Origin: an uncultured Clostridia bacterium
GTDB lineage: Bacteria; Bacillota; Clostridia; TANB77; CAG-508
Assembly (NCBI GenBank): GCA_934130285.1
Contig: CAKOXT010000001.1
Location: 435,232-499,231, forward strand
DNA length: 64,000 bases
Reading direction: 5' to 3'
In this document: piece by piece, positions 1,510-55,775 of the stretch
Numbering within the stretch: position 1 is the stretch's first letter
Layout: each line of letters starts with the position of its first letter
Made by a program: the position numbers and the translations under genes
The notes under the pieces: model-generated
Database searches by the model: none
Seen by the model: the letters and a program-made list of their open reading frames with translations, nothing else
What the model was told of the DNA's origin: nothing

Positions 1510-1836
1510 TTACATAACCTTGGTAGTCTGATAAGACTCAAGTCCTGTAATCTTCAGGAAGTCTTCCACGATGATGACTTCAGGAAGCTGCCCACGATTT
1601 GGAATTACTCCCAAAATCTGGTGAACTTCGCCTTCACGAGTGAGCAAAAACTCTCCGTTTGTCACAAACTCACAGAGTTTCCACTCCGGATGCAACTCAC
1701 GGTACAGCTTTCTCAGCTCAGAGAGCTTCTGAAGTCCATACTCTTCCTTCAGCATTTTGCTGATGCCCATCCGAGTATCGAAATTCATACGTGGCGTGGT
1801 GTTGATAAGTTCCTTTTGCGCTTCTGTCATTTTCAT
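1510..1836 (-). CDS. Hypothetical 108-aa protein in a G+C-elevated cassette (likely start MKMTEAQKEL)
   Basis: The ORF track shows 1510..1908. AGGAGG lies 8 nt upstream of the internal ATG at 1836, so I place the start there. The coding sequence is about 45% G+C by hand count, against a very AT-rich background. The unit carries its own promoter and terminator. I could not recognise a protein family. Confidence 0.5.
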   Translation of the reverse strand: MKMTEAQKELINTTPRMNFDTRMGISKMLKEEYGLQKLSELRKLYRELHPEWKLCEFVTNGEFLLTREGEVHQILGVIPNRGQLPEVIIVEDFLKITGLESYQTTKVM

Positions 1837-1922
1837 AATGACACCTCCTAATGTCTGTTCCTTTTCTCCTCTGCACACATCTGTACAAATTCTAAAAGGT
1901 TTTGCCAACGAGCTACACTTTA

Positions 1923-1951
1923 ATTATACTACGTGTTTACATAATTTTCAA
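1923..1951 (-). promoter_or_regulatory. Consensus sigma-A-type promoter (TTGAAA-17-TATAAT) reading into the GC-rich ORF
   Basis: Minus-strand sequence ttgaaaattatgtaaacacgtagtataat: -35 TTGAAA, 17-nt spacer, -10 TATAAT. Confidence 0.45.
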
Positions 1952-2010: not shown

Positions 2011-2319
2011 TTATTTTACTTTTTGATATTCTTTGGTTTCTATATATTTTCCTAAATATTTTTCAAAAGCATTTTGACTAATTATTATTTCTTCTTTTTG
2101 CATTTTACTTAAGTGTTTTATTCTATATTCTAATTTACTTGCTAACACTCTATTTTCTGATGTCCATGCAGTTTCTATTTTTTCTACTGTATGTTTTTTT
2201 GTATACTTTGCACATTTTTCATTTTTGCTTACATGTTCCTGAAATCTTTTGTCTAGGTCAGTTGTTATTCCTGTATATATCGTGTTATCTTTACATCTAA
2301 TCATATATGTATAATACAT
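2011..2319 (-). CDS. GIY-YIG nuclease family protein (UPF0213 / YhbQ-like)
   Basis: N-terminus MYYTYMIRCKDNTIYTGITTDLDKRFQEH is the classic GIY-YIG motif. Size 102 aa. Confidence 0.75.
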   Translation of the reverse strand: MYYTYMIRCKDNTIYTGITTDLDKRFQEHVSKNEKCAKYTKKHTVEKIETAWTSENRVLASKLEYRIKHLSKMQKEEIIISQNAFEKYLGKYIETKEYQKVK

Positions 2320-4817: not shown

Positions 4818-4935
4818 AAATCAAAGATTTTTTCATTAAATTTGTTCGTGTGCGAAAATTTATGAAATAAATTTTCTGTGCAGTGTAGTTTTATATATTA
4901 GGAAAGTTTCATAACTTTCCTAATATATAAAAAAA
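4818..4935. repeat. 118-bp intergenic repeat, copy A (about 99% identical to copy B at 55658..55775)
   Basis: aaatcaaagattttttcaTtaaatttgttcgtgtgcgaaaatttatgaaataaattttctgtgcagtgtagttttatatattaggaaagtttcataactttcctaatatataaaaaa. It contains the small hairpin ttcg-tgtg-cgaa and a 17-bp hairpin tatatattaggaaagtt/aactttcctaatatata. Confidence 0.6.
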
Positions 4936-4988: not shown

Positions 4989-5071
4989 TGGTACCGATGG
5001 TGGGACTCGAACCCACATGGTTTCCCGCATGATTTTGAGTCATGTGCGTCTGCCAATTCCGCCACATCGGC
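4989..5071 (-). tRNA. tRNA-Leu (anticodon CAA), class II tRNA with long variable arm
   Basis: The reverse complement reads GCCGATGTGGCGGAATTGGCAGACGCACATGACTCAAAATCATG...GGGTTCGAGTCCCACCATCGGTACCA. The acceptor stem GCCGATG/CATCGGT pairs, the T-loop is GGTTCGAGTCC, and the anticodon loop is CT-CAA-AA. Confidence 0.8.
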
Positions 5072-35297: not shown

Positions 35298-35413
35298 TTT
35301 AAATTCCTCCTTGTTTTTTATACTTCCGCAAGCCTTGATTTTTAGCATTTAGGGTCACTAGATATTACTAGCACAAGCCTAAACTAAACTTGCGTGCTTT
35401 TTAACGCTTTGTT

Positions 35414-35442
35414 ATTATACCAGACTTTTTAAGGTTTGGCAA
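35414..35442 (-). promoter_or_regulatory. Near-consensus sigma-A promoter for rpsB-tsf (TTGCCA-17-TATAAT)
   Basis: Minus-strand sequence ttgccaaaccttaaaaagtctggtataat. Confidence 0.5.
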
Positions 35443-35604
35443 TACTTTTAGCTATTTTTCTATGTATCTTCTATTTTTTATTAGCATTTCTTAACTTTTA
35501 TTTTATTTATCTTAATTTAATTCCATGTTCTTAATTAAATGCTTCGCATACTACTTATTTTTTAACTATATTTTATTGCGTTTTACATTACAAAGTTTTT
35601 CATT

Positions 35605-35640
35605 AATTATAAAAAAAGAAAGGGTGGCTTTTAATTGCTC
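35605..35640 (-). terminator. Rho-independent terminator downstream of the 70-aa GC-rich ORF
   Basis: gagggtggagcaattaaaagccaccct followed by tttcttttttt on the minus strand. Confidence 0.5.
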
Positions 35641-35667
35641 CACCCTCTTAGAGAACTGATTTTTCTC

Positions 35668-35880
35668 TTACATTTTCTGATACTTGACCCTCCCATCATG
35701 CCGAGTTATCTTATAGTCTATCTCAGCCATAGACAGAAACGTTTCGATAAAGTCCGAATTATCGGCTTCCCCTCTTTCATAAAGGGTAGCGTCTGGCAAG
35801 CTAAATCTTAACCTCCTAATCTCGCCCAGTTGTCCTTCTTCAGAAATTACTTGATCCAAAAACCGCCTACTTAAAATCAT
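35668..35880 (-). CDS. Hypothetical 70-aa protein in a G+C-elevated cassette
   Basis: Strong RBS gggaggtaagagagATG. The coding sequence is markedly GC-richer than its flanks. It has its own terminator, and a terminator lies upstream at about 36000..36045. No family recognised. Confidence 0.5.
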   Translation of the reverse strand: MILSRRFLDQVISEEGQLGEIRRLRFSLPDATLYERGEADNSDFIETFLSMAEIDYKITRHDGRVKYQKM

Positions 35881-36046
35881 CTCTCTTACCTCCCTATATG
35901 GAAATGTATTTATTTTAGCACTGTTTACATAAATTGTCTAGTAGCTAATTCTTTTTTCTAAATATTTAACTAATCTTTCATTTTATTTCATAAAAAAAGC
36001 CTACATGACTCGTACTAAAAAGCACGAGTTCATATAAGCTTTGATT

Positions 36047-36751
36047 TTAATAAACTTTTTGCAATTCAAAATTAAGATAATCTGCACTAATTAATTTGTA
36101 TTCGACTCCATACAATTCATAATCTTTTACATTCCAATAGGCTTGTTCTCCATGTAAATGTCCATAATAACATTTACGTATATTGAATTTTCCCATTATC
36201 TCTGCATATGGGTTAATATTATTACTTTCCGGTTTTTCATATGGTGGATAATGCATTAAAACTATGATTTCTTTTGAATCTCCATATTCTTTTTTTATCG
36301 AATTAAGTTCCATTTCTAATCTCAATTTTTCACGTCTTAATATCTTATTGTCTTCTTCTTTTCCATTTATAACCCAGCCATGTACACCTGTTATTATTTT
36401 ATCTTCAAATATGTAATAATTATTTTGAATAAAATCTATATTTTGAAATTTATTGTCTTTTATAAATTTTCTCATTTTAGCAAGAGTAGTCCACCAATAA
36501 TCATGATTGCCTTTAAGTAGTAATTTTTTTCCCGGCAAACTATCTAAATATTCAAAATCTTTTTTGGTATCTTCTAGTCTCATTGCCCATGAAAAGTCAC
36601 CTGGCAATAAAACTAAATCATCTTCTTTTACTTTTTCTTTCCAACTGTTTGCTATTTTCTCATCGTGTTTTTCCCAATTACTTCCGAATATGTCCATTGG
36701 TTTATTTGTGCCAAATGACAAATGCAAATCAGCTATTACAAAGATTGACAT
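36047..36751 (-). CDS. Metallophosphoesterase (calcineurin-like phosphoesterase) family protein
   Basis: Motifs DLHLS, GDFS, GNHDYW and a His-rich C-terminal region (GHLHG). Confidence 0.7.
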   Translation of the reverse strand: MSIFVIADLHLSFGTNKPMDIFGSNWEKHDEKIANSWKEKVKEDDLVLLPGDFSWAMRLEDTKKDFEYLDSLPGKKLLLKGNHDYWWTTLAKMRKFIKDNKFQNIDFIQNNYYIFEDKIITGVHGWVINGKEEDNKILRREKLRLEMELNSIKKEYGDSKEIIVLMHYPPYEKPESNNINPYAEIMGKFNIRKCYYGHLHGEQAYWNVKDYELYGVEYKLISADYLNFELQKVY

Positions 36752-48348: not shown

Positions 48349-48514
48349 AGTTTTATTAGAAAAATAAATTTATTTTACCTTGTTTCGTGGTTTAGAAGCT
48401 CTAACGAAAATCAATCAGCGTCCTCATTGCTGTGAGATTCCCTAATTGATTTTCTTAAGAGCTTCTACTACCACTCTCACTGCGCAACCATAAATTTATT
48501 TTTCTAATAAAACT
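48349..48514. repeat. 166-bp nested palindromic element (23-bp perfect outer inverted repeat around a ~27-bp inner stem with a 30-nt loop); MITE-like, structured RNA or recombination site
   Basis: Outer IR: ttttattagaaaaataaatttat ... ataaatttatttttctaataaaa. Inner IR: gtggtttagaagctctaacgaaaatcaat ... attgattttcttaagagcttctactaccac. It lies at the boundary of GC-rich cassette 3. Confidence 0.55.
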
Positions 48515-48540: not shown

Positions 48541-48575
48541 TAAAAAGATTGGAGGGGTAGCCCCCTCCTTTTTTT
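48541..48575 (-). terminator. GC-rich bidirectional terminator downstream of the 160-aa GC-rich ORF
   Basis: ggaggggtagccccctcc flanked by A/T runs. Confidence 0.5.
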
Positions 48576-48583
48576 GTGTTTCG

Positions 48584-49066
48584 TTAATCATACGTATAAA
48601 GAATGTCGATGTACTCTTCAAAATTTCCCTGAACTTTTTCACCTTCCCTATTTGTGTATTGTCCATAAGATTCCTCGAGTGTTGGCAACCGCTGAAGTTC
48701 TGTACGCACTCCGTTTTCGCCAACATACACCCATCTTTTTCTGAACTTCACAAAGCTCATTGTACCATAATAATAAGCTTCGTCATTCTGACCCCAAAGT
48801 ACTCGTTGAAGCAAAACATTTTTTGTTGTTTCAACATATTCTCGTGGTAGTGGCTTAAGTGAGGGGACTTCCGTAGTGACATACCACAGGTTATACCGAT
48901 GCATATAGTCACTTACTTCATCTCTAAATCTCCAATACCGGTCAGTTACCACGTCGGTTTTGTATACTACATTAATCTTCTGTAAAGAATCAATATGTTT
49001 CAAAACCTCCTCTGGAATGACTAAATGTGGGTGAAGCTTCCGTGCTAATTTTTGAATAAGTTTCAT
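48584..49066 (-). CDS. Hypothetical 160-aa protein in a G+C-elevated cassette (start MKLIQKLARK)
   Basis: GGAGG lies 9 nt upstream of the ATG at 49066. The ORF-track start at 49108 is an upstream extension. Composition is clearly GC-richer than the flanks. No family recognised. The overlapping 76-aa ORF 48496..48726 is judged spurious. Confidence 0.5.
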   Translation of the reverse strand: MKLIQKLARKLHPHLVIPEEVLKHIDSLQKINVVYKTDVVTDRYWRFRDEVSDYMHRYNLWYVTTEVPSLKPLPREYVETTKNVLLQRVLWGQNDEAYYYGTMSFVKFRKRWVYVGENGVRTELQRLPTLEESYGQYTNREGEKVQGNFEEYIDILYTYD

Positions 49067-49127
49067 CTTGAAACACCTCCATATTGTTGATAATTTTAAT
49101 ATTAGCACTTTATGTTAATTAAGTCAA

Positions 49128-55657: not shown

Positions 55658-55775
55658 AAAATCAAAGATTTTTTCAGTAAATTTGTTCGTGTGCGAAAAT
55701 TTATGAAATAAATTTTCTGTGCAGTGTAGTTTTATATATTAGGAAAGTTTCATAACTTTCCTAATATATAAAAAA
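55658..55775. repeat. 118-bp intergenic repeat, copy B (one mismatch relative to copy A at 4818..4935)
   Basis: Same sequence as copy A except T to G at the position ...ttttttcaGtaaatttg. It is immediately followed by a distinct terminator hairpin. Confidence 0.6.

Follow-up and report, generated by a model that had tools for sequence, protein, structure and literature searches.

A small orphan protein gene upstream of rpsB in gut Clostridia, a probable accessory unit sharing a promoter element with other GC3-rich orphan genes

In a 64,000-nt stretch of DNA from an uncultured Clostridia bacterium (this whole stretch is called the window below), a 70-amino acid (70-aa) open reading frame (ORF) lies between a phosphoesterase gene (pe) and rpsB. 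From comparison of related genomes, this ORF is probably a real monocistronic small-protein gene. It would belong to an orphan family and form an accessory, exchangeable unit, which shares a promoter element with other GC3-rich orphan genes.

Structure and conservation of the unit

The unit and the signals that flank it, as predicted from the sequence, are as follows.

35992..36042, minus strand: intrinsic terminator of the upstream gene pe, a 21-bp hairpin followed by U7 (-27.8 kcal/mol, z -8.9)
35912..35940, minus strand: sigma-70-type promoter, TAGACA-17-TAAAAT, 10/12 in a consensus scan, with TG upstream of the -10
35935-35940 (-35) and 35912-35917 (-10), minus strand: hexamers of this promoter, TAGACA - ATTTATGTAAACAGTGC - TAAAAT
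35923..35932, minus strand: spacer motif TTATGTAAAC with the core (A)ATTATGTAAA, inside the promoter spacer of the 70-aa gene
35889..35894, minus strand: Shine-Dalgarno sequence (SD) GGGAGG, read directly, with the ATG 8 nt downstream
35668..35880, minus strand: coding sequence of the 70-aa protein including the stop codon, from the ORF list; its translation is exactly the one quoted in the earlier note
35610..35648, minus strand: intrinsic terminator of the 70-aa gene, hairpin AGAGGGUGG..CCACCCUUU and a U-run (-13 kcal/mol)
35414..35442, minus strand: rpsB promoter, TTGCCA-17-TATAAT, 11/12 in the consensus scan, with TG

The terminator of the 70-aa gene has a stem of 9 bp and a loop of 12 nt, which is followed by UUUCUUUUUUU. 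The pe gene (Metallophos, Pfam PF00149) ends in the terminator that forms the left boundary of the unit. On the right, the variable slot is bounded by the rpsB promoter, which lies outside of the unit, with ~170 nt between it and the terminator of the 70-aa gene. On the antisense strand of the unit, the promoter-like site is weak (9/12 in the consensus scan). Transcription from TAGACA-17-TGcTAAAAT would yield an RNA of ~290 nt, predicted to consist of a leader of ~25 nt, the strong SD, the 70-codon ORF, and the intrinsic terminator. The earlier note, made from the window alone, had described a standalone ORF with a GGGAGG ribosome-binding site and its own terminator, separated from pe by a second hairpin terminator. 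All of this is borne out by the ORF list, the direct read, and the two hairpins, and the promoter prediction that it recommended supplies the sigma-70-type promoter.

The promoter is identical across the contigs of the same species. All three clades of the gene share TAGACAA, a 17-nt spacer, and TAAAAT despite saturated synonymous sites, and an SD (AGGAGG or GGGAGG) is found at a constant distance from the start in all homologues. The terminator is 100% conserved in L008 and L001; the remaining clades have other hairpin terminators at the same position 3' of the homologous ORF.

Only the window clade allows the region of the start codon, AAGAGAGAUGAUUUU (35872-35886, minus strand), to pair with AAAAAUCAGUUCUCU just past the stop codon (35649-35663, minus strand). 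This pairing encloses the whole ORF in the MFE fold. The other clades do not have it.

Evidence for a protein-coding gene

Within the window clade dN/dS is 0.20-0.26, and within the clade of L089, L093, and L094 it is 0.19-0.28. Between the ORFs of the window and L008 (dS 0.18, dN 0.044), nine of the 14 differences are at third codon positions, and one AGG to CGA change exchanges arginine for arginine. Between clades, synonymous sites are saturated (pS 0.8-1.0) and pN is ~0.43. At a protein identity of 37-44%, homologues still retain the ORF length, the ATG, and the SD. Judged by these substitution patterns, the 70-aa ORF is a real protein gene under purifying selection.

Since structural RNAs often make GC-rich islands in AT-rich genomes, the stretch could also be a structured non-coding or dual-function RNA in which the ORF is incidental. 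The transcript with its terminator folds somewhat better than dinucleotide shuffles (z -2.1), and family ORFs compared with synonymous-codon shuffles have folding z of -1.1 to -2.6, both of which fit an RNA. However, gene segments of the host fold alike in the same synonymous-shuffle test (mean z -1.10, sd 1.24, n=36), and RNAalifold finds no common structure over three clades of the gene (an essentially empty -0.42 kcal/mol with 6 pairs). Among the Rfam covariance models, the whole window matches only tRNA-Leu (4992-5071) at gathering score, and 35300-36100 gives nothing better than E = 2.5 at E up to 10. With codon positions governing the substitutions as well, an RNA with an incidental ORF is highly improbable. 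That the ORF is a chance ORF or an annotation artefact, as its shortness and the lack of a named homologue might suggest, is hardly credible at all. It is kept in four clades under purifying selection with its SD and start codon, is present on many independent metagenome contigs from Hadza and other gut samples, and has a confident structure model. The earlier note had allowed for a random ORF or an ncRNA instead; what is found are homologues, dN/dS of 0.2-0.28, and no Rfam match.

A narrow orphan family

Homologues were sought by a word-indexed search, by HMMER over 1.84 billion representatives, and by a profile search (5.8 billion). The word-indexed search returned only two close clusters, 99% and 91% identical to the window protein. 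The exhaustive HMMER search gave three matches and added the distant P0003 and P0004, and the profile search gave six clusters, adding P0005 and P0006. The homologue set is thus P0001-P0006. A profile scan of metagenomes, a search that the earlier note had suggested, gave one same-species locus only. The seven proteins align over 69 residues without internal gaps and with 16 invariant columns, and the distant homologues are 37-44% identical to the window protein. A Cys-rich C-terminal tail (e.g., PTCCKKC) is found in the L089/L093/L094 clade.

AlphaFold2 on the seven-sequence alignment gives a model with pLDDT 88.3 and pTM 0.74, while the single-sequence model is poor (pLDDT 52). In the model, residue 2 forms a strand bridge, two helices span 5-11 and 14-25, a strand 32-37, a further helix 43-51, and a hairpin 56-61/64-69. 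The product is predicted to be a small, soluble, roughly neutral alpha/beta protein with a compact fold that runs from a short N-terminal strand through two helices, a strand, and another helix to a beta-hairpin. Structure prediction, another check proposed in the earlier note, therefore provides a confident fold but no identity, as no match is significant when the model is used in a fold search; the better ones are methyltransferase fragments. An IF3-C-like or YhbY-like fold (beta-alpha-beta-alpha-beta-beta topology) is at most a candidate.

The window protein has no match in Pfam or NCBIfam, where its homologues have only non-significant ones (best E 0.077), and the 70-aa protein has no match in PADLOC. 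A weak match to phrog_37771 (E ~0.004-0.006) is limited to three sequences of the window clade. A PDB profile match to a 36-residue stretch of a phage protein (best E 0.03) was treated as chance. The literature was searched for small proteins encoded upstream of rpsB, and none was found. The 70-aa family matches no known family and has no significant match to a known fold; it is undescribed and very narrow. This very small orphan family is known only from a few uncultured gut Clostridia of ~28% GC.

GC enrichment and the other cassettes

GC content around the 70-aa ORF is 0.39-0.415 (200-nt segments), compared with a mean of 0.285 for the window. The ORF itself has GC 0.408 and GC3 0.437, and the host GC3 is 0.156 (sd 0.037, n=53 long ORFs), which confirms that the ORF is GC-richer than its flanks. 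Its codon-usage score (mean log relative codon frequency) is -1.56, compared with -0.72 (sd 0.12) for the host. It uses 22 host-rare codons, each of which makes up less than ~10% of its synonymous family (CGG, CTG, AGG, GGG, GCC, TCG, and others). In the family, GC3 is 0.44 for the window ORF, 0.49 for L090, and 0.28-0.32 for the L089 clade, and the flanking DNA of the hosts has GC 0.25-0.32. GC enrichment is therefore a trait of the whole 70-aa family. As causes of the enrichment, a conserved RNA structure is ruled out by the lack of a common RNAalifold fold, and exceptional mRNA stability by the similar synonymous-shuffle z of host segments.

In a survey of gut-microbe orphan genes, GC and GC3 of orphans closely match the host genome, and virus-like orphans are GC-poorer (PMC11293555). 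The set of GC-rich orphans found here is unusual against this survey.

Other GC-rich islands in the window are at ~1450-1900 and 48550-49050. They have the layout of the 70-aa unit (cassette 2 in the earlier note), i.e., promoter, SD, single ORF, and terminator, and correspond to two further cassettes.

1510-1950, minus strand: cassette 1, a 108-aa orphan ORF with ATG at 1836, GC 0.45, GC3 0.53
48584-49110, minus strand: cassette 3, a 160-aa orphan ORF with ATG at 49066, GC 0.38, GC3 0.34

No sequence relation was detected among cassettes 1, 2, and 3 by blastn, tblastn, and blastp. The earlier claim of a common architecture is therefore correct for layout and GC-rich composition, and it does not extend to sequence similarity. 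The cassette 1 family is likewise GC-enriched (GC3 0.37-0.53).

Cassette 1 comes with a terminator of its own and a conserved 5' leader (~85 nt). Related low-GC organisms have 14 clusters of homologues (54-99% identity), and GC enrichment is seen in all three homologues examined. Both in the window and in L105, cassette 1 precedes a CxxCxxCC-domain gene, and the genes upstream of the cassette 1 family differ (GIY-YIG, UvrD, and a tRNA synthetase). Cassette 3 has the promoter TTGACT-TAATTAACATAAAGTGC-TAATAT, which has AGTGCTAA-AT in common with the promoter of the 70-aa gene, and a GC-rich terminator. Its protein matches nothing in Pfam, NCBIfam, PADLOC, or PDB, and its sole PHROG match is non-significant (E 0.08). 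Past this terminator, at ~48380-48500 (minus strand), a GC-richer and potentially structured stretch (GCGCAGTGAGAGTGGTAGTAGAAGCTCT...) lies between convergent genes; it has no Rfam match at gathering score. An identical 28-mer, ACTGCACAGAAAATTTATTTCATAAATT, is found at ~4857-4884 and at 55698-55725 (minus strand), 51 kb apart. This is a short dispersed repeat, one copy of which adjoins the tRNA-Leu gene.

Neighbourhood in the species and its relatives

All contigs of the same species read pe, the 70-aa ORF, and then rpsB-tsf-DUF2238-tig-clpP-clpX. The contigs retrieved via the exact pe protein have an identical neighbourhood in 23/23 cases (those read), and the 70-aa gene therefore appears to be fixed in the species. 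In L090 (96% identical to the window in rpsB, 88% in tig, and 89% in tsf), a 37-38% identical homologue occupies the same slot upstream of rpsB. It is preceded by two different unidentified genes, and the downstream order rpsB-tsf-DUF2238-tig-clpP-clpX is kept. L094 has a 43% identical homologue 60 nt past a UDP-galactopyranose mutase-like gene; its slot is judged from a short stretch at the contig end, where the rpsB promoter and leader are near-identical to those of the window. The similarity of the window to L094, L090, and L010 begins at the rpsB promoter and extends into the leader.

The gene is absent from other relatives. In L010 (tig 82%) pe adjoins rpsB directly across a gap of 325 nt without a 70-aa gene. 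L009 (tig 81%), the closest GTDB representative, also lacks it and has an exonuclease III-like gene in the pe-rpsB gap. This exodeoxyribonuclease III-like gene (L009 4724-5482) appears to be split into two reading frames, through either a frameshift or an assembly error.

L089 and L093 have an allele of the L094 type at a different place, between a GIY-YIG gene and a 314-aa gene of unassigned family. The homology of L089/L093 to L094 is limited to the stretch from ~35 nt before the -35 through the terminator, and it takes in the 3' end of L094's upstream gene. Every locus of the 70-aa family is surrounded by housekeeping genes within ±6 kb.

Downstream of the GIY-YIG gene, whose two versions are 48% identical (window 2011-2319, minus strand; L089 5485-5844), the slot contains cassette 1 in the window and a gene of the 70-aa family in L089 and L093. 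Two orphan cassettes are therefore found in what is apparently one slot.

The rpsB 5' leader is strongly conserved (window 35298-35395, minus strand; L009 5535-5655; L010 4905-5028; L090 3925-4045). RNAalifold gives it a nested three-helix structure of 22 pairs, five of them with compensatory double changes (helices e.g., CTAG..CTAG, CTAAC..GTTAG, and CCAAT..ATTGG), and no Rfam family matches at E up to 10. It is a candidate S2 autoregulatory leader.

Divergence of the alleles

Nucleotide identity between the window and L008 is 93.4% for the ORF, 99.1% for pe, 98.3% for promoter and leader, and 100% for both the terminator and the rpsB leader. Between the window and L090, the ORF has pS 0.81 and dN 0.72, while the flanks have dS of 0.21 (rpsB), 0.39 (tsf), 0.65 (tig), and 0.89 (DUF2238) and dN of 0.02-0.19. 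The host of L089 looks more distant than that of L090, on the thin evidence of a GIY-YIG gene that is only 48% identical to the window's. Its allele, 44% identical to the window's, is no more distant than the L090 allele (37-38%). With this placement of L089, for which the evidence is thin, the tree of the alleles would depart from the tree of the hosts. The divergence of alleles relative to flanks, and the allele distances set against host distances, argue for old allelic lineages or exchange at the variable slot rather than for simple vertical descent. Vertical descent with a locally raised substitution rate may nevertheless account for the excess divergence of the ORF. The evolution of the 70-aa gene suggests an accessory, exchangeable unit more than a core gene: only some relatives have it, it appears fixed in the species, and its alleles are far older than their flanks.

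A promoter element shared with other orphan genes

The exact 10-mer TTATGTAAAC has two copies in the window (0.46 expected), both of which are in promoter spacers, those of cassettes 2 and 1. The spacer sequence AATTATGTAAA is kept in two clades of the 70-aa family, and homologues of cassette 1 in other species retain the spacer motif. In related genomes, promoters of the form TTGAnn-AATTATGTAAA-N6-TAWAAT precede unrelated ORFs (L032 3088, L048 6881, L034 6301, L036 6241, and L089 2547). These ORFs are GC3-rich and 111-278 aa long, and none matched in a Pfam search. Those of L032 and L048 form one family and those of L034 and L036 another; that of L089 is a 278-aa membrane protein. A hairpin is apparently downstream of the ORFs in L032, L036, and L048.

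Over all fetched loci, ORFs behind motif promoters (12 after deduplication, ~5 gene families) have GC3 0.199 above the locus median, and those behind control promoters without the motif (n=39) have an excess of 0.005 (sd 0.063). The difference is significant (Mann-Whitney p = 8e-6), with the instances not fully independent. In a viral contig collection the promoter pattern is almost absent (2 matches). That (A)ATTATGTAAA is common to GC3-rich orphan genes of the lineage suggests common regulation or common origin. To our knowledge, by eye, the motif fits none of CIRCE, the PlcR box, TnrA/GlnR, CodY, cre, PerR/Fur, the DnaA box, and the Spo0A box, nor does it fit sporulation sigma promoters.

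An 11-nt sequence in the promoter spacer of the 70-aa gene, ATTATGTAAAC, matches at every position the XerD arm of the dif site of B. subtilis (ACTTCCTAGAATATATATTATGTAAACT; PMC4845504). The dif site of the host is outside the window. The unit lacks a XerC arm, a 6-bp central region, and a second site at its other end. The gap between the -35 hexamer and the motif is just 1-2 nt, where the 6-bp central region of a Xer site would be required, and the motif is ~40 nt inside the homology boundary of the unit, not on it. A scan of the window for dif-like 28-mers gave 21/28 at best, within the shuffle range of 19-22. The match to Xer/dif is a lead only, because arm, centre, second site, and a 28-mer above shuffles are all missing. 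A pdif module or IMEX is not supported, as the XerD-arm-like 11-mer stands alone inside a promoter spacer.

Origin and function

The earlier note had proposed a foreign gene inserted next to rpsB, possibly with a toxin, immunity, anti-phage, or regulatory role. A single-gene cassette of this kind, recently acquired from a GC-richer donor, is suggested by the GC3 of 0.44 in a host of 0.156 with strongly atypical codon use, by the lack of the gene in the pe-rpsB gap of L010 and the different gene in that of L009, by alleles far more diverged than their flanks, and by the ~390-bp unit at another locus in L089/L093 with sharp homology limits from promoter to terminator. But GC-enriched homologues are in the same slot in two other organisms, and the gene accompanies pe in 23/23 contigs of the species. 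Among ~15 billion proteins there is no homologue outside the low-GC lineage. Tblastn of the family against phage and plasmid records gave nothing meaningful, and a profile scan of viral contigs gave none. No donor lineage and no phage, plasmid, or mobile-element gene was found for the unit, and no integrase or transposase near the loci of the 70-aa gene. A partner gene, a hydrophobic segment, and a PADLOC match are lacking as well. Recent acquisition from such a donor is therefore unlikely. What remains of the earlier proposal is an exchangeable unit with a variable slot, atypical composition, and diverged alleles; recent import from outside of the lineage is not supported, and the toxin, immunity, or anti-phage role is unsupported. 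As to synteny, which the earlier note wanted checked, the slot is indeed variable (L010 and L009) as an insertion would have it. Nevertheless, relatives with the same gene at the same place and of like composition, by which the note would have given up its claim, are largely what L090 and L094 represent. Three specific forms are also disfavored: prophage or ICE cargo by the housekeeping neighbours at all loci, a type II toxin-antitoxin pair by the single ORF between promoter and terminator (pe and rpsB have signals of their own), and a type I toxin by the hydrophilic sequence and the soluble alpha/beta fold of the model.

It could also be that the small protein is translation-associated and kept by rpsB-tsf for action on the ribosome or on S2/EF-Ts. 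Despite differing upstream genes, the gene is directly upstream of rpsB, in the same orientation, in three of four lineages. This link is based on these three lineages, and in L089/L093 the gene is elsewhere, after the GIY-YIG gene. The gene is absent in close relatives with the same rpsB operon, it evolves far faster than its neighbours, its own terminator stops ~170 nt short of the rpsB promoter, and the better fold matches are non-significant methyltransferase fragments. A dedicated role in translation is thus improbable. Quite unlikely, too, is a lineage-specific set of single-gene cassettes (XerD-arm-like AATTATGTAAA promoter, GC3-rich orphan ORF, and own terminator) exchanged between genomes and fixed intergenic slots by an undescribed mechanism. 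The slots would be those upstream of rpsB and downstream of the GIY-YIG gene, the mechanism may depend on a Xer-type recombinase or on a shared repressor with the element as its binding site, and the GC enrichment would reflect a shared pool or shared selection.

For the reading favored here, an orphan small-protein gene in an accessory unit, function can be ranked with low confidence. A 70-residue protein without catalytic motifs most likely binds a partner protein or nucleic acid. The translation apparatus is the first candidate partner, because the position next to rpsB-tsf recurs, and a conflict or immunity-type role is the second candidate, because allele turnover is rapid. The ranking would place first a small protein with a binding or regulatory role within a promoter-linked set of accessory genes, then a specific tie to translation as suggested by the rpsB position, and then genetic conflict as suggested by the fast turnover of alleles.

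Taken alone, the gene adds one more uncharacterised small protein. Its case implies that an island of high GC content in a very AT-rich genome can be a conserved protein gene, not an RNA or a fresh import, and it breaks the reported rule that orphans of gut microbes match their host in composition. One promoter element ties several unrelated orphan genes together and thereby gives a handle on the "dark" small genes in an uncultured lineage of the gut. Should this element prove to be an operator or a site of recombination, it would define a new system of cassettes or a new regulon.

Comparison with known systems

Xer-dependent modules include the pdif modules of Acinetobacter and IMEX elements; a full site has 28 bp and consists of a XerC arm, a 6-bp centre, and a XerD arm. 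They are likewise single-gene units in variable slots, found at different loci in different genomes, and the XerD-arm match ATTATGTAAAC is a further likeness. Unlike them, the 70-aa unit has no XerC arm, no second site, and no motif at its boundary.

Phage morons are autonomous accessory transcription units. Like the 70-aa unit, they consist of one small gene between a promoter and a terminator of its own, and their composition is atypical and their distribution patchy. Unlike morons, the 70-aa gene is outside of any prophage and has no viral homologue by sequence or fold.

The lineage-specific orphan genes of the gut (Vakirlis and Kupczok 2024, PMC11293555) are, like the 70-aa gene, short, restricted to a narrow lineage, and under purifying selection, and both make poor use of host-optimal codons. 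The 70-aa gene differs from these orphans in that its GC3 is almost three times the host value, it is common to several species, and its promoter motif is common to other GC-rich orphans.
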